DNA of 64,000 nucleotides from Bacteroidales bacterium (GTDB lineage Bacteria; Bacteroidota; Bacteroidia; Bacteroidales; WCHB1-69). Below are positions 4,974-51,532 of the stretch, one piece after another. A program made the translations under genes and the position numbers. Position 1 is the first letter of the stretch. Each line of letters begins with the position of its first letter. The stretch lies in contig JAFXSR010000046.1 of the NCBI GenBank assembly GCA_017525505.1, forward strand, positions 1,520-65,519, given 5' to 3'. The notes beneath the pieces are model-generated. The model did no database searches, had not been told where the DNA came from, and saw only the letters and a program-made list of their open reading frames with translations.

Positions 4974-5379
4974 GTACCGAAGGTACGATATCTCAATAAC
5001 CCCGCACGTCAGTATGGGGTCTGGGAGAGGGAGTAACATCAACTCTCGATCTGCACACATCGACAGAGCATGATGAGGCCCGTAGGGCCGAAAAGAATAC
5101 AGACAGGGGTGTAACCCCTGATACAGACAGGGGCGCAGCCCCTGGTAGAAAGGACCACATATATCATCGCGGCACGTGTTGTGTTTGCCATGATGATGTG
5201 TTATGCTTGCCGCGAAAGTGAGGGGTGATGTTACAGTGCCTCAGGATCTTGACAGAGTGAGACACCTTGGTTTTGAGTCTGACGATGTGTCGCCTCTTCG
5301 AGGCTCAGAGACATGTGTGGGCATCCTCTCACCCCACACTAACGTGCGGGGTTACTGAAATGGTGCCTCTTCGAGGCAC
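4974..5379 (+). mobile_element. MITE-like hairpin-module element, copy A
   Basis: The left end gtaccgaaggtac...tcaataaccccgcacgtcagtatggggt and the right end accccacactaacgtgcggggttactga...gtgcctcttcgaggcac are inverted repeats of each other. The element is collinear with copy B except for an extra hairpin-rich insert at about 5025-5165. Confidence 0.7.
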
Positions 5380-11808: not shown

Positions 11809-13110
11809 TCACAACTCATCTTCAACAACATTCAATCCCTGCAACAATGCTTTCAACACCTCGGCATGGCGGCCAGGCACGATAACATGATGATTGCCAA
11901 TAGGATTGGTCAGGAAATAGGCGGTTTGCGAGGGCTCTGCCAAGCGCACCACCAACTGTGTGCGACAAAGGTCGGGTTGGGACTGATTCCGGATCAATCC
12001 GCCCTCGGTGATGAAGCATCGGGACAAGTCGCCAGCCACTTTGCATATCGTGACAGGTCCTTCAGGCACATAGCCGCGGATGCCCACCCCGATACCCGAC
12101 TCGAAATGTGTGTCCAGTTCGTAACGTTGCACCATATCGAAAGGAATGGTACAATGAGCGAACAGAATTTCACCCGTTTCGGGGTTGATGGAAGCGGGAT
12201 TGGCCTGGAAGCACGAGACGCCGCACAAAGCACGCACCACCATCATGGTCAGCATGGTGGGCACATCGCCTTCGCAACCCGCCACAATGTCCTCAGAATT
12301 CAACTTGGCCAAAGCCCAGCAGCCCGTATTATGCACGGAATCCAGCAAATCGAAACAACGCAAGGTAAAGCCTTGAAGCTGATAATTTTCAATTAAAGAT
12401 TTCAATGCCAAATAAATACGGTATGCATCCGGCAATGAATTGGCCACAGCGGCCGAACCACAAAGCCCTTTCGAGAATACAGAAGCAACTGTATTACAAC
12501 AACATTCACCCAGACCAGCTATTTTAAGACTAGCAAACAAACTCTTCACCTCTACCGTTGACATCTGCGGAATTCCCGCTAAAGTCTCCAGCAATTCGCT
12601 CATCGGAATATCCACAAACTCCACACCTAAGTTCTGACGCACCTTGGCAGCATCTTTCACGCTCGCAATCAGCCAATCGGACGGTTCACCAATCACACCG
12701 AGACGGCACTGGCGCAAATAGTTCGAGGCATCCCCTACTCTTTGCAACATCCTGATTTTGGCAGAAACGTATGCGGCTTTGCCATGCAGAATTTCTCCCT
12801 GCATGCCCTGCTGCCTCAGATACGACAGAATCTCCAACGAAGCAGCCAAGGAATTGCTCTTGTCGGAAGCCAAAAGATAAAACGGCTTGGCGGACTGTGC
12901 CTCCAGCTGTGGCAAAAGGCGTTTGAAAAGGCCTTCGGTGCCACCCGTCCGCACAAATATCAAATCCAGATCATGGCTGCCGTAGTCGGCAAAATCATTG
13001 TCTTTCAGTTCGTACGTCAAATCCAGTGATGATAAAAACTCCTGGGTTAGAGCCGTTATTGCCTGCGGGTCATGCAGTGCGGAAGTTATAGGGTAAATGG
13101 CGATGGACAT
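11809..13110 (-). CDS. L-fucose/L-arabinose isomerase-superfamily protein
   Basis: 433 aa. The central motif IVAGCEGDVPTMLTMMVVRAL...FQANPASINPETGEILFAHCTIP resembles the sugar isomerase (FucI/AraA-like) catalytic region. The specific substrate is unknown. Confidence 0.5.
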   Translation of the reverse strand: MSIAIYPITSALHDPQAITALTQEFLSSLDLTYELKDNDFADYGSHDLDLIFVRTGGTEGLFKRLLPQLEAQSAKPFYLLASDKSNSLAASLEILSYLRQQGMQGEILHGKAAYVSAKIRMLQRVGDASNYLRQCRLGVIGEPSDWLIASVKDAAKVRQNLGVEFVDIPMSELLETLAGIPQMSTVEVKSLFASLKIAGLGECCCNTVASVFSKGLCGSAAVANSLPDAYRIYLALKSLIENYQLQGFTLRCFDLLDSVHNTGCWALAKLNSEDIVAGCEGDVPTMLTMMVVRALCGVSCFQANPASINPETGEILFAHCTIPFDMVQRYELDTHFESGIGVGIRGYVPEGPVTICKVAGDLSRCFITEGGLIRNQSQPDLCRTQLVVRLAEPSQTAYFLTNPIGNHHVIVPGRHAEVLKALLQGLNVVEDEL

Positions 13111-13114
13111 TTTT

Positions 13115-13262
13115 AGTATAAAGTATAAAGTATAAAGTTTATAGTTGACAGTTGATAATTGATAGTTGACAATTGATAATTGGTTTAGGAGGTTTAGAAA
13201 GGTTACACGGTTAGGAGGTTATTAAGTTTATGGATTATGAATTTTGAATTCTGAATTAAATT
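13115..13262. repeat. Drifting tandem word array filling a whole intergenic spacer
   Basis: The units are gtataaa x3, gtttata, gttgaca, gttgata, attgata, gttgaca, attgata, then ggtttag/gaggttt-type words, then ttatgga/ttatgaa/ttttgaa/ttctgaa. The period is mostly 7. Confidence 0.8.
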
Positions 13263-13850: not shown

Positions 13851-14480
13851 TTAAACATTGTATTCCGCCATATCCTCCGCTGCCATCGGCAGTTCCTCCT
13901 CCACATGGATATAGCTTTTATCTTTCGGATTGAAGGTTGCGAGGTAATAATCATGAAGCTGAACCTCAACACGCAACATCGTCTGTTCCAACTGTTTGGG
14001 TTTCAACTGGCACTCCCAAAGCACAATCACCTGCCAGCCATTCTCCCGCAGAATCCGGTAATTTTCCTGATCCCGCTCCTGATTCCTCTGAATCTTTCGA
14101 ATCCAAAAATCAGTATTGCTTTGCGGAATCCTGCAACACTCAGAATTCTCAACCTTCTTTCTATCAACCTTATACGGAATTCCCTTCTCTCCCACCTTTC
14201 CAACCGCTACTCCAGAATCCGAATTCTCAACTGTCAATTGTAAACTGTCAACTGTCAACTGAACCCCGTGTCCATGCCAAAAGCACCCGTTCACAAAGAT
14301 GGCGGTGCGATACTTCCGCATCACGATATCCGGCTTCCCCGGCACCCCTTTTACACACAAGCGGTAGCGATAGCCATGTTGCCACAGCCACTGCCGCACC
14401 TTGATTTCAGGCTTGGTATTCCGGCTGCGGATATGCGACATGCAGCGGTGGCGTTGTATCGGGGTCATGATGTCAGTCAT
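13851..14480 (-). CDS. vsr: Very-short-patch repair endonuclease with an in-frame repeat-derived insertion
   Basis: SRNTKPEIKVRQWLWQHGYRYRL...GKPDIVMRKYRTAIFVNGCFWHGH ... PQSNTDFWIRKIQRNQERD...GWQVIVLWECQL is the Vsr signature. About 36-39 extra residues interrupt the CFWHGHxC segment. Confidence 0.8.
   Translation of the reverse strand: MTDIMTPIQRHRCMSHIRSRNTKPEIKVRQWLWQHGYRYRLCVKGVPGKPDIVMRKYRTAIFVNGCFWHGHGVQLTVDSLQLTVENSDSGVAVGKVGEKGIPYKVDRKKVENSECCRIPQSNTDFWIRKIQRNQERDQENYRILRENGWQVIVLWECQLKPKQLEQTMLRVEVQLHDYYLATFNPKDKSYIHVEEELPMAAEDMAEYNV
14143..14262. repeat. Repeat-vocabulary insertion inside vsr
   Basis: An 11-bp direct repeat gaattctcaac (14143-14153 and 14221-14231) bounds a 78-bp block. 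It is followed by heptamers caactgt/caattgt/aaactgt/caactgt/caactga. Confidence 0.75.
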
Positions 14481-14481
14481 A
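14441..14481. repeat. 41-bp direct repeat, copy 1 (authentic vsr 5' end)
   Basis: tgcagcggtggcgttgtatcggggtcatgatgtcagtcata. It is identical to 15833-15873 at 40 of 41 positions. Confidence 0.9.
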
Positions 14482-14884
14482 AGTACTGTTTGTCAAAAAC
14501 GATTTTTTTTAGCTTTTCGATCACGTCCAAATCTGCTGGCAGCCACTGCACGCTGTCGAGCTCATTAGGGGCGAGCCAACGGGCGGCCTCATGTTCGAGG
14601 AGGGTGAGCGAGCCGCTTTCTACGGTGCAGAGGAAGCAGTGCATGGTGAGGTGAAATTTGGGGTAATCCCATTCCACAGTATGTAACAGGCTCTCTATGC
14701 GGACACAGGTCTCCAGTTCCTCCCAGATTTCACGCTGAAGAGCTTCTTCTGGAGTTTCTCCTGGTTCAATCTTGCCTCCGGGAAACTCCCACCAGTCCTT
14801 CCAATCGCCAGCCCCCCGCTGGGTGGCGAAAATGCGACCTTCTGCATCATGTATAATCGCCGCTACAACCTCAATCTGTTTCAT
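14477..14884 (-). CDS. mutT: Nudix hydrolase (MutT / 8-oxo-dGTP or CTP pyrophosphohydrolase type)
   Basis: 135 aa. The Nudix box reads GGKIEPGETPEEALQREIWEELE. The stop overlaps the vsr ATG (ATGA). Confidence 0.8.
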   Translation of the reverse strand: MKQIEVVAAIIHDAEGRIFATQRGAGDWKDWWEFPGGKIEPGETPEEALQREIWEELETCVRIESLLHTVEWDYPKFHLTMHCFLCTVESGSLTLLEHEAARWLAPNELDSVQWLPADLDVIEKLKKIVFDKQYL

Positions 14885-16721: not shown

Positions 16722-16973
16722 CTATTTTTTTAGGGTTTCTAATGCCCGGCAGAGCTGGTCGGGGCAGGAGGTGGCTTTATCGCCACAACGGATGCCATTC
16801 AGTATGCCAATGACATCGTCAATCTTTCGGCCTGTCACCAAACGACTGATTCCTTGCAGGTTACCATGGCAACCGCCATAAAAAACAACTTGCTGAATAA
16901 CATCATTCTCATCGACCGTCACATCGATGAACTGCGAGCAGGTTCCTTGGGTTTTGTAGAGGGTGTGTTTCAT
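16722..16973 (-). CDS. TSCPD-domain protein (TIGR03905-like)
   Basis: 83 aa. The sequence reads GTCSQFIDVTVDENDVIQQVVFYGGCHGNLQGISRLVTGRKIDDVIGILNGIRCGDKATSCPDQL, with the eponymous TSCPD motif. Confidence 0.75.
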   Translation of the reverse strand: MKHTLYKTQGTCSQFIDVTVDENDVIQQVVFYGGCHGNLQGISRLVTGRKIDDVIGILNGIRCGDKATSCPDQLCRALETLKK

Positions 16974-17929
16974 ATTTGTTCATTTTTTAGTTTTTCCACC
17001 AATTCATCGCTGATGTTATTGCCTAATTGCTGGCAAACATCCTGACTCCAGCGTTGGGCCATCTTAATAAATTGACAGTTTATAGTTGACAGTTGACAGT
17101 TATTTTTGGCGAACGTTGAATCTTCCGTTTTCAATTTACCATTTTCAATGGCAAGCTTCGCATAGATATAGCCTGCGTTGAAGTTGTCACCAGCCCCTAC
17201 CGTACTGACAGTTTCTATCGGCTGCACAGGATAAGTCTCGCAGCTCTCAGGCGTATAGACCCGTATCTGGCGCGCTCCGTCAGTCAGTATCAGCGTCTGG
17301 CAATAGCGGCTCACCCGCTCATAAATGGCATCGCCGTCGTGCAAGCCGAGAAGGTACCCAAAGTCCTCCATAGAACCACGAACCACATCAGCCAGCCGCA
17401 TGTTCTCTTCAATATTGGGCATCACGTCGGGCAGGTCGGCGATATGGTTTTTACGGAAGTTGACGTCGTAATAAAGCCAGGCACCCGCCTCGTGTGCCTT
17501 ACGAAGCAAGCCACCCACCACGGAGCGTATCACAGGGTTGATAGCGAAGAACGACCCGAACAGCACCACATCATTTTTGCTAAAAGTCGGCAGAGGGCCA
17601 TCGAGCGATACTGACGCATGGTCCTTGTAAAAGACATATTGCGCATCGTTATGCTCGTTGAGGAAAGCCAACGTGATGTGTGACTTGACATTTTCGTGGC
17701 GGCAGACGTATTCCGACGACACTCCATTCTCCTGCAGGTAATTGCAAATCAGATCTCCCACGTGGTCGCCACCTACATCTGTCACCATGACACAGTTCAT
17801 GCCTGCCCGTCCCAGCGAGACGATGCTGTTGAACGTCGAGCCCCCCGGCACAGCCTTCAGCGGCTGATCGTCCTTAAAGAGGATGTCCAATACAGTTTCT
17901 CCGATACCGATGATGCGATTTTTAGTCAT
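16970..17929 (-). CDS. PfkB-family carbohydrate kinase (fructokinase)
   Basis: IIGIGETVLDILFKDDQPLKAVPGGSTFNSIVSLGRAG...LAFLNEHNDAQYVFYKD...VSTVGAGDNFNAGYIY closely follows Bacteroides fructokinase. The C-terminal region contains a heptamer tract (NNCQLSTINCQFI). Confidence 0.8.
   Translation of the reverse strand: MTKNRIIGIGETVLDILFKDDQPLKAVPGGSTFNSIVSLGRAGMNCVMVTDVGGDHVGDLICNYLQENGVSSEYVCRHENVKSHITLAFLNEHNDAQYVFYKDHASVSLDGPLPTFSKNDVVLFGSFFAINPVIRSVVGGLLRKAHEAGAWLYYDVNFRKNHIADLPDVMPNIEENMRLADVVRGSMEDFGYLLGLHDGDAIYERVSRYCQTLILTDGARQIRVYTPESCETYPVQPIETVSTVGAGDNFNAGYIYAKLAIENGKLKTEDSTFAKNNCQLSTINCQFIKMAQRWSQDVCQQLGNNISDELVEKLKNEQI
17068..17104. repeat. Heptamer tract inside the fructokinase CDS
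   Basis: The units are attgaca/gtttata/gttgaca/gttgaca/gttattt. The same GTTGACA vocabulary occurs at 13144 and 14232. Confidence 0.75.
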
Positions 17930-30155: not shown

Positions 30156-30698
30156 ATGAAAAAACTATCTATGGAAGAACTCCACCGTGTAAGCCCCGAG
30201 GAGTTCAAAAAAATCAAGAAAATACCGCTGACCGTCGTTTTAGACGACATACGCAGCATGAACAATATCGGCTCCATTTTCCGCACCTGCGACGGCTTAG
30301 CCGTAGAACAGCTATATCTTTGCGGCATCACCGCCTGCCCGCCCAACAAGGAAATCAACAAAACCGCCCTCGGCGCCACCGAAAGCGTGGAATGGCATTA
30401 TTTCGAGGATGTAGTGGAAGCCGTCAAACAACTGCAACATAGTGGCTACAAGGTTTTTATGGTAGAACAAACCGACCAGTCCATCATGCTGCAAGATCTG
30501 AAAATTCCCCAAGGACAGAAAACCGCCATCATCTTGGGAAATGAGGTGTTCGGTGTCAGCGACAAACTGCTGCCCATCGTAGATGGAGCCATCGAAATCC
30601 CCCAGTTCGGTACCAAACACTCCTTCAACGTGACCATCGCCGCGGGAATGGTGATGTGGGAGATCTTTAAACAGGTTTCAGGGGTCAGGGGTCAGTGA
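30156..30698 (+). CDS. TrmH/SpoU-family RNA 2'-O-methyltransferase
   Basis: 180 aa. LTVVLDDIRSMNNIGSIFRTCDG...ILGNEVFGVS...IEIPQFGTKHSFNVTIAAGMV are the SpoU motifs. Confidence 0.8.
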   Translation: MKKLSMEELHRVSPEEFKKIKKIPLTVVLDDIRSMNNIGSIFRTCDGLAVEQLYLCGITACPPNKEINKTALGATESVEWHYFEDVVEAVKQLQHSGYKVFMVEQTDQSIMLQDLKIPQGQKTAIILGNEVFGVSDKLLPIVDGAIEIPQFGTKHSFNVTIAAGMVMWEIFKQVSGVRGQ

Positions 30699-30757
30699 TT
30701 AGGGGTTAGTGATTAGGGGTTAGGTATCAGGGATTAAGGATTCAAAATTCAAAGACT
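30679..30757. repeat. Tandem word array overlapping the trmH stop
   Basis: The units are caggggt x2, then agtgattaggggtt x2 (period 14), aggtatcagggatt, aaggatt and caaaatt. The first units encode the last codons VSGVRGQ*. Confidence 0.8.
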
Positions 30758-39596: not shown

Positions 39597-39664
39597 CACT
39601 ATCATTTCAAATTCCAAAGACTCCCCTGATGCGAAGCATCTCTCACATGAGCGCAATGGAACTC

Positions 39665-39730
39665 CACTAACCCCTAATCACTAACCCCTAAAAATCAGCA
39701 CATTAGCACATTAACTAATTTGCTAATTAA
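39665..39730. repeat. Tandem word array overlapping the stop of the PPAD-like gene
   Basis: The units are cactaacccctaat x2 (the reverse complement of the 30700 words), gcacatta x2, and ctaatttgctaatt. The last unit supplies the codons ...KIN* on the minus strand. Confidence 0.75.
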
Positions 39731-48580: not shown

Positions 48581-48793
48581 AGGTGGAAAGTAGAAAGTGG
48601 GAGGTGGGAGAATTTAAGAATTAAGAACTGAAAACTGAAAACTGAAAACTGAAAGTTCTTTTTAATGTGCCAATTAACAATGTGCTAATGTGCCAATTAA
48701 ACGGAAAACGGAAAGTTGTCAAAAGATATGTGATAAAAAACAAATCAACAAATAAACAAATAAACAAATCAACAATTAAACAAATCAACAACA
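48581..48793. repeat. Longest drifting tandem word array (periods 7 and 8), filling the whole spacer up to the glyA ATG
   Basis: The units are aggtgga/aagtaga/aagtggg/aggtggg/agaattt/aagaatt/aagaact/gaaaact x3/gaaagtt, then ...aatgtgccaattaac..., acggaaa x2, then ...aacaaatc/aacaaata x2/aacaaatc/aacaatta/aacaaatc. Confidence 0.85.
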
Positions 48794-50074
48794 ATGACAA
48801 GAGACACACAAATTTTTGATCTCATTCAGAAAGAAAGAATCCGTCAGACGAACGGTATTGAATTAATCGCTTCAGAAAACTTTGTAAGCGATCAAGTTAT
48901 GGAAGCCATGGGTTCTGTGATGACCAACAAATACGCCGAAGGCTATCCTGGAAAACGTTACTATGGCGGTTGCCAGATTGTGGACCAGAGCGAAACCATC
49001 GCCATTGAGAGAGCCAAAGAGCTCTATGGCGCATGCTGGGCCAACGTACAGCCTCACAGTGGTGCCCAGGCCAACATGGCCGTTTTCTTGGCTTGCCTCA
49101 ACAGTGGCGACACTTTCATGGGCATGGACCTGAACCACGGCGGTCACCTCTCACACGGCAGCCCCGTCAACTTCAGCGGTATCAACTACAAAGTGGTGGG
49201 TTACCAGGTGAAAGAAGAGACTGGCACAGTAGATTACGAAGACATGGAGAAGAAAGCGCTCGAGTTCCGTCCGAAACTGATCATCGGCGGTGGTTCAGCA
49301 TATAGCCGTGACTGGGATTGGGCTAAGATGCGCGAGATTGCCGACAAAATCGGTGCCATCCTGATGGGCGACATCAGCCACCCCAGCGGACTTATCGCCA
49401 AAGGTTACCTGAACAATGCCTTGAAATACTGCCATATCGTCACTACCACCACCCACAAAACCCTCCGTGGACCTCGTGGCGGTCTGATTCTGATGGGCCA
49501 GGATTTCGACAATCCTTGGGGCAAAACCACCCCGAAGGGTGAAATCAAGAAGATGAGTGCCCTGCTCGACAGCGCCGTGTTCCCCGGCACACAGGGTGGT
49601 CCCCTCGAACATGTGATCGCCGCCAAGGCAGTGGCTTTCGGTGAAGCATTGACCGACGACTACGACCGCTACATCCAGCAGGTGATGAAAAACGCCAAGA
49701 CCATGTGCGCCGCCTTCATCGACAAGGGTTACAAGGTTATCAGCAACGGTACCGACAACCACCTGATGCTCATCGACCTCCGCACCAAATTCCCCGAAAT
49801 GACCGGTAAGGAAGCTGAGAACGCATTGGTATCCGCCGACATCACCGTGAACAAGAACATGGTTCCTTTCGATAGCCGTAGCGCATTCAAGACCAGCGGT
49901 TTGCGTGTGGGTACTCCCGCTATCACCACCCGTGGCCTCAAAGAAAACGAAATGGGCGAGATCGTTGAACTGATCGACGACGTATTGAGCCATCTCAACG
50001 ACACCACCGTGGTTGACAAGGTAAGAGCCAAAGTCAACAGCATGATGTCCAACCGTCCTTTGTTCGCTTGGTAA
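48794..50074 (+). CDS. glyA: Serine hydroxymethyltransferase
   Basis: [26 protein letters not shown], and [14 protein letters not shown] (PLP lysine). Confidence 0.92.
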
Positions 50075-51423: not shown

Positions 51424-51532
51424 AAAAACTGAAAACTGAAAGTTAACAATTAAGGGGGAGATGGTGTGAAGATTATTGGATTATTAGATGATGGATTTAG
51501 GATTAAACATTAAACTCTAAACATTAAACAAA
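51424..51532. repeat. Tandem word array filling the sigma54-activator / lptE spacer
   Basis: The units are aaaaact/gaaaact/gaaagtt, then ...gattattg/gattatta/gatgatg/gatttag/gattaaa/cattaaa/ctctaaa/cattaaa. Confidence 0.8.

Follow-up and report, generated by a model that had tools for sequence, protein, structure and literature searches.

A hypervariable in-frame tract of genomic repeats in the zinc-binding loop of Vsr endonucleases from uncultured Bacteroidales

The 64-kb stretch of DNA analysed here (the window) carries a vsr gene on the minus strand (13851..14480) encoding a protein of 209 amino acids, identified from the list of open reading frames, the Pfam Vsr family, PDB entry 1cw0 and an AlphaFold2 model. 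The ATG overlaps the stop codon of the upstream NUDIX gene (14477..14884), a macro-domain gene comes after vsr, and the order NUDIX-vsr-macro is kept in close relatives. The Vsr profile PF03852 matches at 6e-30 (103 bits, cut-off 27) and covers residues 2-73 only, the model ending where the tract that is the subject of this report begins. Alignment with E. coli Vsr (PDB code 1cw0, 4e-22), a check proposed in the initial annotation of this DNA, falls into two pieces. Residues 5-73 correspond to E. coli 5-73 and residues 117-163 to E. coli 77-123, with 43 residues in the window protein opposite three in the E. coli enzyme. The numbering of the two proteins is the same up to residue 73. In 96 of 139 representative Vsr sequences whose motif can be recognised, CFWHxH and the conserved proline are separated by 7 or 8 residues, the canonical patterns being xCx5P or xxCx5P. 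The spacing from CFWHGH to P-Q-S-N is 47 residues in the window protein, which bears out the original observation of extra, frame-preserving residues in the zinc-binding loop of an otherwise intact Vsr.

The CFWHGH motif (codons 66-71; 14268..14285, minus strand), placed by the 1cw0 alignment and invariant in 65 relatives, forms the left border of the tract. It contains the equivalents of two zinc ligands (Cys66 and His71), two intercalating residues (Phe67 and Trp68) and a catalytic histidine (His69). Twelve positions are invariant in the 65 relatives (Glu25, Asp51, Cys66, Phe67, Trp68, His69, His71, Cys115, Cys116, Trp126, Asp137 and Cys157), of which Trp126, Asp137 and Cys157 correspond to Trp86, Asp97 and Cys117 of E. 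coli Vsr. The catalytic residues Glu25, Asp51, His69 and Asp137 and the intercalating residues Phe67, Trp68 and Trp126 are all retained; their roles have been described (PMC3239194). Position 64, a histidine in E. coli Vsr, is an asparagine, as it is in I-Bth0305I (PMC3239194). Judged by their sequences, the tract-bearing enzymes would be expected to remain active.

Tsutakawa and colleagues reportedly described, in 1999, a Vsr zinc site made up of Cys66, His71, Cys73 and Cys117 with an H-x-C spacing, in which Cys73 of E. coli Vsr is the canonical third ligand. The window protein keeps Cys66, His71 and Cys157 (equivalent to Cys117) and has a valine at position 73. The cysteines closest to Val73 are the invariant Cys115 and Cys116, 43 residues downstream (codons 115-116; 14133..14138, minus strand), which form the right border of the tract. 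The motif CC[KR][IL]P, in which they stand, sets tract-bearing sequences apart among Vsr representatives. Cys115 and Cys116 are the obvious candidates to substitute for the third zinc ligand and may bind the metal. In Vsr the zinc motif lies in the β3-α2 loop (PMC3239194).

The structure prediction that the initial annotation also proposed gives a model with pLDDT values of 77-89 in the core and below 50 for residues 77-106. The best Foldseek matches are 1cw0_A (E 3e-8, TM 0.74) and 1vsr (TM 0.75, rmsd 2.0). In the model the Vsr fold is kept and the tract is a low-confidence loop. For the 17-residue heptamer tract of protein P0057, of the common type, AlphaFold2 gives a short, weak β-hairpin, again of low confidence. 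The tract begins one or two residues past His71, near Phe67 and Trp68. Both of its ends would meet at the zinc site and the remainder would form a flexible surface loop or short β-hairpin. We propose that the protein tolerates the tract because the ends are held together in this way while the rest projects from the surface.

Repeats are prone to mis-assembly and the Pfam model stops at the tract, so the possibility of an assembly artefact, or of a dead gene that is open by chance, has to be considered. However, the identical 209-residue protein is encoded on nine contigs, and assemblies from ENA, JGI, NCBI and Logan supply variants of 97-99% identity. The flanks of the tract display dN/dS values of 0.02-0.09 across the clade; they are under strong purifying selection. 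With the Vsr fold also retained in the model, an artefact or pseudogene is scarcely credible.

The tract itself spans codons 72-114 (14139..14267, minus strand, GVQLTVDSLQLTVENSDSGVAVGKVGEKGIPYKVDRKKVENSE). One part consists of five tandem heptamers (14228..14262, minus strand) reading CAGTTGA, CAGTTGA, CAGTTTA, CAATTGA and CAGTTGA on the coding strand, or caactgt, caattgt, aaactgt, caactgt and caactga on the forward strand. The units and the period of seven had been recognised originally; the array had been started at 14232, its true span being 14228-14262. TRF reports a period of 7, 5.0 copies and 85% matches for this array, and its lag-7 match fraction of 0.82 was equalled in none of 5000 shuffles. 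The third unit (CAGTTTA) is patched from TGA to TTA and the reading frame stays open. Two copies of an 11-bp direct repeat, gaattctcaac on the forward strand and GTTGAGAATTC on the coding strand, also lie in the tract, one proximal to the Cys-Cys codons (14143..14153, minus strand) and one at the junction with the heptamer array (14221..14231, minus strand), where it overlaps the first heptamer unit by 4 nt. The match of GAATTCTCAAC between 14143-14153 and 14221-14231 is perfect, as had been noted before, and allowing one mismatch lengthens it to 14 nt on the coding strand (GTTGAGAATTCGGA and GTTGAGAATTCTGA). Direct repeats of at least 11 bp at a spacing of 12-150 nt occur in 14 of 319 windows of 200 bp (4%) and so are not rare here; the repeat acquires its significance from the existence of alleles without the DNA that it bounds.

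There is no match to the tract in Rfam and RNA folding gives z = -0.07, no special fold, which speaks against a structured RNA or known RNA family. No palindrome was found in the window's own tract, and no GTAG-REP palindromes anywhere in the window. Typical inteins are far longer than the vsr tract. An intein or a translational bypass can be dismissed since the tract is far too short and is always open, even where the consensus unit would give a stop codon.

Tandem heptamers are a feature of this DNA beyond vsr. The window contains ten arrays of period 7 and four of period 8, with none at periods 5, 6, 9, 10 or 11, and most adjoin the starts or stops of open reading frames. The word repeated in vsr is, as originally claimed, arrayed elsewhere, at 13141-13175 and 17075-17102 (11 matches against 0.39 expected). 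The first of these positions lies in an intergenic heptamer array with the word AGTTGAC (13107..13186), directly upstream of the ATG of an open reading frame on the minus strand (11809..13110), and exemplifies a class of repeats spread over the genome. The second lies in a PfkB fructokinase gene 2.6 kb from vsr, where codons 261-287 (17069..17149, minus strand, IENGKLKTEDSTFAKNNCQLSTINCQF) are a heptamer-derived segment in frame, identified from the lag-7 match and from relatives. This segment has a lag-7 match of 0.57, and its units all share one phase. Fructokinase relatives of 300 residues have LGMDDQARR at that loop and other relatives carry different heptamer flavours. The fructokinase loop thus behaves in the same way, and we are dealing with a property of the repeats of this lineage rather than of vsr alone.

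Is the tract a recent arrival in this strain? The initial annotation described an insertion that had landed in vsr. A protein search returned thousands of relatives, of which the best 120 are 63-100% identical and 176-218 residues long; their alignment is near-invariant on either side of the tract and unalignable within it. A scan with one genome per species gave at least 548 loci whose product is related to the query. Of these, the best 80 all come from uncultured Bacteroidales MAGs, mostly from the rumen, and all 80 carry an open, in-frame tract of 16-47 residues at the same position, between CFWHxH and Cys-Cys-(K/R)-I-P, which is at odds with a recent landing. Eight metagenome loci also carry an in-frame tract, the shortest, of 10 residues, being that of the locus we designate L085. 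The longest tract is 47 residues among the loci and 116 residues in a database protein, P0121. In all 88 loci (the best 80 of at least 548 and the eight from metagenomes) the tract is in frame and free of stop codons. A homologous, conserved segment at this position in related Vsr proteins had been named as the mark of an ancestral feature. Half of that description fits, in that the site is filled in all these relatives and its occupancy is therefore ancestral, whereas the content is unrelated from locus to locus and not conserved. No conserved residue was found inside the tract apart from the border positions. No reversion to the canonical short spacing was seen among the clade members examined, so some loop could be needed.

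A classifier based on regular expressions and periodicity assigns the tracts of the 88 loci to heptamers only (49), GTAG palindromes (13), tracts containing a 78-bp block present in the window (9), two further short elements whose translations include 'HCEERSNP' (6) and 'PNPSPxGEG' (5), and others (6). The heptamers come in several flavours, including CAGTTGA, CAATTCA, CAATGTA, GAGTTAG, AAAATGG and AATTAGG. Some tracts hold perfect 28-nt palindromes of the form GTAGAGACG-N10-CGTCTCTAC, and in L006, L032 and L041 a palindrome or other segment is nested in heptamers. A relaxed pattern finds 12 tract copies of the GTAG palindromes (L009, L023, L028, L030, L031, L037, L041, L050, L058, L063, L069 and L080). 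Their centres fall into discrete types and the same types occur at three sites outside vsr (L013, L083/84 and L086), which indicates that they belong to dispersed GTAG-REP-type families.

Tract content is replaced far more rapidly than the sequence of the surrounding gene. Unrelated tracts are found despite flank p-distances of 0.025-0.06 in the pairs L005/L007, L019/L028, L035/L041 and L067/L072. A neighbour-joining tree built from the flanks requires 30 changes of tract class, compared with a mean of 36.4 when labels are permuted, a count that is rough and to be read only as 'very frequent' since the tree draws on 435 nt of a strongly conserved gene, and recombination or horizontal transfer of vsr may have blurred it. 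In the comparison of L005 with L007 the same two or three substitutions appear in every heptamer (CAATGTA to GAATTAA), and only three differences are found in the 84 nt upstream; the units of the array have evolved in concert. Exact indels of 21 nt, or three units, separate L004 from L085 and the window from L083, the latter lacking exactly three heptamers of the window array. For other close pairs the figure is a different multiple of three, and all differences in tract length are divisible by three. A perfect array would contain a stop codon in 34 of the 50 distinct heptamer tracts, and in all 34 the units are altered such that the stop is avoided. The tract must then be translated, and these patches account for the 'imperfect' heptamers. 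Copying of the tract from its own genomic neighbourhood was also considered; sharing of 10-mers with the same neighbourhood rather than with other genomes is not significant at p = 0.07, in a comparison for which flanks of ±3 kb are too short, and the idea was set aside.

Tandem heptamers are classic substrates for slippage (literature in PMC4679880) and whole-unit indels do occur, so one could imagine a contingency locus in which gain or loss of a single heptamer shifts the frame and switches Vsr on or off. Against this, the 88 loci include no length variant that is out of frame or interrupted by a stop. The arrays are short, about five units, and imperfect because of the stop-avoiding patches. 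Exact length differences between arrays of the same flavour come in whole 21-nt steps, those between other close pairs in other multiples of three. Switching of this kind is very unlikely.

The other part of the window tract is the block of 78 bp (26 codons; 14154..14231, minus strand, DSGVAVGKVGEKGIPYKVDRKKVENS), which comparison of alleles reveals to be a nested indel; owing to the direct repeat its boundaries can equally be placed at 14143-14220. It is carried by the window and by L001, L002, L003, L083/84, L086/87 and L088. It is missing in L081, L004 and L085, each of which has a single GTTGAGAATTCGGAG copy remaining. Insert-free alleles, which the initial annotation had suggested seeking, thus exist for the block; the tract itself is absent from none of the loci examined.

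The entire insert had been attributed to the repeat vocabulary of the genome, an attribution that stands for the heptamers and fails for the block. The lag-7 match of the block interior is only 0.37, a value equalled in 914 of 5000 shuffles, and this lack of a period-7 signal rules out a decayed heptamer array. The more specific claim, that the interior is the reverse complement of words in an array at 48581, finds no support. By eye the two have only the 9-mer GGTGGGAGA in common, simple arithmetic suggests tens of common 9-mers by chance for a 67-nt query against 64 kb, and blastn-short detects no similarity between the block interior and that array.

Could the block have reached vsr by transposition of a small mobile element, or of a fragment of an array, with duplication of an 11-bp target? 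The perfect flanking repeat, 14 nt long if one mismatch is allowed, and three lineages whose site is exactly empty but for one copy of the repeat are what such an event would leave. They are, however, equally expected from deletion between repeats, and repeats of this length are, as noted, present in 4% of 200-bp windows. A blastn-short search covering the 64-kb window and about 540 kb of related loci found no second copy of the block, and a metagenome scan with a 24-base core of the block gave three exact matches, all inside vsr. With vsr copies the only ones returned by both the search of the window and 88 loci and the pattern scan, the idea of a dispersed repeat was rejected. There are no inverted-repeat pairs at the block ends within 14120-14280, and the interior, as described above, is not heptamer-periodic. 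By flank distance the most divergent member of the sub-clade, L003, carries the block, and L085 and L004, which do not, are nested among carriers, a distribution that fits deletion between the repeats. Transposition is therefore unlikely. Of the proposal that this was an insertion with a target-duplication-like repeat, the indel remains, with the empty alleles keeping one copy, and the traits of a transposon do not.

The absence of the block from three lineages in which one repeat copy is left marks it as a nested indel and not an active transposon. With L003 a carrier and the empty L085 and L004 nested among carriers, the simplest history is one gain and at least two losses. The block was probably gained once, in the ancestor of the sub-clade to which the window belongs, and may have been lost on at least two occasions by deletion between the 11-14-nt direct repeats; allelic recombination is an alternative to deletion. 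As to its origin, we favour microhomology-mediated template switching at the word GTTGAGAATTC. Between alleles the block differs at 5-15% of nucleotides, an overall divergence similar to that of the flanks and no faster, and dN/dS values range from 0.09 to 1.1 and are mostly 0.1-0.5. With dN/dS mostly below one and divergence like that of the flanks, the block is not free of constraint. A recent spread, in which the block is younger than the flanks, was considered and rejected. Only comparisons that involve L003 show fewer third-position differences in the block than in its flanks, with uncorrected p values of 0.005 and 0.013 for two of the five pairs, and such a signal is not robust. We conclude that the block is best regarded as a locus-specific nested indel, apparently old within the sub-clade, and neither an active element nor array sequence.

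A further alternative is that the loop has a function of its own and is positively diversified, the repeats being mere raw material. In such a case a variable β-hairpin beside the DNA-intercalating wedge could tune the choice of substrate or escape phage-encoded inhibitors. In over 88 alleles the site is always filled, by at least 10 residues, and the tract starts very close to the intercalating Phe67 and Trp68. By eye, many heptamer tracts alternate hydrophobic and polar residues around an Asn, Ser or Gly turn, and one has been modelled as a hairpin; the mostly low dN/dS of the block points the same way. Yet no residue is conserved inside the tract beyond its borders, model confidence there is low, and the content is that of generic DNA repeats, including perfect palindromes, whose symmetry exists at the level of DNA. 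The similar loop in a metabolic kinase also points to a mutational process and not to selection specific to vsr. We consider a positively diversified loop a rather doubtful explanation.

The reading that we prefer, with a probability of roughly 0.6, is that unstable repeats of the genome, evolving in concert, have colonised a tolerated surface loop. In an ancestor of the clade the zinc-binding loop would have opened between His71 and the third cysteine ligand, and variable DNA that is translated would have filled it from then on. The sources would be tandem heptamers with an AACTG/AGTT core, perfect palindromes of the GTAG type (REP-like) and a few other short elements. Turnover may follow three routes. 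Replication slippage and homogenisation within an array would give concerted evolution of all its units. Indels would arise of which only those in frame and without stops survive, such as those of three heptamers, or 21 nt. Nested insertion or conversion by palindromes or other sequence would be assisted by repeated words serving as microhomology. Slippage or conversion as the molecular route of change is what we infer.

Some components of this arrangement have precedents. Cyanobacterial STRR are comparable tandem heptanucleotide repeats, and Elhai and colleagues are said to have described (in 2008, Genome Res 18:1484) tandem heptameric repeats of Nostoc with small dispersed repeats nested in them. 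The vsr heptamer tracts likewise host palindromes and other segments, in L006, L032 and L041, though in a different phylum and with different elements, and the 78-bp block belongs to no multi-copy family that we could find. Simple-sequence contingency loci of host-adapted bacteria also have short tandem repeats in a coding region and whole-unit changes in length, whereas the vsr arrays are imperfect and short, without out-of-frame alleles among the 88 loci.

In-frame decoration of proteins whose genes stay functional is known from Rickettsia RPEs and intragenic REPs, and many intragenic REPs lie in replication or repair genes (Di Nocera et al. 2013, PMC3733652). The vsr tract is similar in that short genomic repeats stand in frame in an otherwise intact gene, and the GTAG-tagged perfect palindromes in orthologous vsr tracts resemble intragenic REPs in general type. 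It differs in that one codon position is filled throughout the clade and rewritten with different classes of repeat, in that the site is inside a metal-binding motif and not at the protein periphery, and in that the window's own tract is without a palindrome. TAACTGA heptanucleotide repeats occur in Beggiatoaceae, Cyanobacteria and some Bacteroidetes, a single heptamer dominating and the copies within open reading frames lying mostly at protein ends or in hypothetical proteins (MacGregor 2015, PMC4679880). The repeats described here share with them the period of seven, the AACTG-type core, a mostly intergenic location abutting start codons with occasional overlap of open reading frames, and stop codons in one orientation of a perfect array. 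In contrast, the window lineage has many flavours, and its arrays enter the cores of conserved enzymes, kept open by patched units. We found nothing relevant in the literature on heptamer repeats in rumen Bacteroidales, nor a description of one codon position in a metal-binding motif occupied clade-wide and rewritten by differing repeat classes. In-frame repeat decoration, AACTG-core heptamers and elements nested in heptamers are already known; their combination in vsr appears to be the new part.

A more far-reaching possibility, which we regard as speculative and rather improbable, is that an active, lineage-specific process deposits heptamer arrays and GTAG palindromes at favoured positions and keeps replacing them, with two natural 'landing pads' in the zinc loop of Vsr and the loop of the fructokinase. 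Targeted or microhomology-templated insertion or conversion would be candidate routes, possibly through a RAYT-like or as yet unknown activity. If such a process exists, the translated hypervariable loops would represent a route, separate from diversity-generating retroelements, by which protein loops diversify and peptides are born de novo, and which is possibly adaptive for Vsr.

On the preferred reading, of a tolerated loop colonised by unstable repeats, the metal-binding knuckle of a conserved repair nuclease accommodates arbitrary stretches, 10 residues long at the least and over 100 at the most, in no fewer than 80 species, with tight selection on the remainder of the protein, and vsr amounts to a natural experiment in insertion tolerance. 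The case is relevant to the origin of new coding sequence from unstable repeats and to the reasons why gene callers and domain models truncate such proteins. The tract is also a very fast-evolving marker within a slow gene and could discriminate strains in rumen metagenomes. For the organisms themselves, it reveals an uncultured rumen Bacteroidales lineage in which abundant tandem heptamers enter the cores of enzymes in frame and evolve in concert.

In each of the pairs of related loci L005 and L007, L019 and L028, and the window and L001, the repair-nuclease gene vsr shows much stronger conservation than the DNA on either side of it. Between the window and L001 the nucleotide identity of vsr is 94%, whereas the neighbouring genes are 73-86% identical and rearranged; the stretch common to L005 and L007 extends over only about 1 kb, around vsr. 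Such a disparity suggests that a small vsr cassette may have been moved by horizontal transfer or recombination. The start codon of vsr and the stop codon of the upstream NUDIX (MutT-like) gene overlap at 14477-14480 in the window, and the gene order NUDIX-Vsr-Macro is kept in relatives. In the related loci that were inspected, none of the called genes was a cytosine methyltransferase gene.

GTAG-type perfect palindromes, which resemble small REP elements, occur in the Vsr tract, the hypervariable in-frame stretch that follows CFWHGH, of loci L009, L023, L028, L030, L031, L037, L041, L050, L058, L063, L069 and L080. Their density in the tract is hundreds of times greater than in approximately 534 kb of flanking DNA, their symmetry stays perfect and their centres are of discrete types. 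Copies outside vsr were located at L013:4563-4590, L083:5562-5589 and L086:4293-4319, and the L013 copy is followed immediately by a CTNTTGC heptamer array.

Entire intergenic spacers of the window consist of 7-nt, in some cases 8-nt, arrays (13107-13186, 30672-30716, 39664-39691, 48608-48663, 48738-48791 and 51493-51530), with drifting units. The arrays directly adjoin start codons or overlap the 3′ ends of ORFs, and one, (AAACAAAT)n, stops 2 nt short of the ATG at 48794. A different repeat, at 5097-5144, comprises two tandem copies of the 24-nt unit ATACAGACAGGGGCGCAACCCCTG, each with a GC-rich hairpin inside it. Heptamer phasing is also seen within a coding sequence, that of the PfkB fructokinase (ORF 16970-17929), where a 27-codon segment on the minus strand (17069-17149, IENGKLKTEDSTFAKNNCQLSTINCQF) stands in the position at which 300-residue relatives have an LGMDDQARR loop. 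The heptamer flavours at this position differ in other relatives.

Beyond the clade studied, the third zinc ligand and the loop also appear to vary among Vsr relatives, judging by sequences in the representative library, since two proteins, P0145 and P0153, have no cysteine between CFWHGH and the proline (ETHLRI/ETHLRL) and a third, P0251, carries a 24-residue insert followed by a canonical ACPKYHI. No other insert observed at this position is as long as the 116-residue tract of the 288-residue library protein P0121, in which a unit of about 19 residues (…DFVSEANRNLKNNQQDTH…) is repeated in tandem approximately four times.
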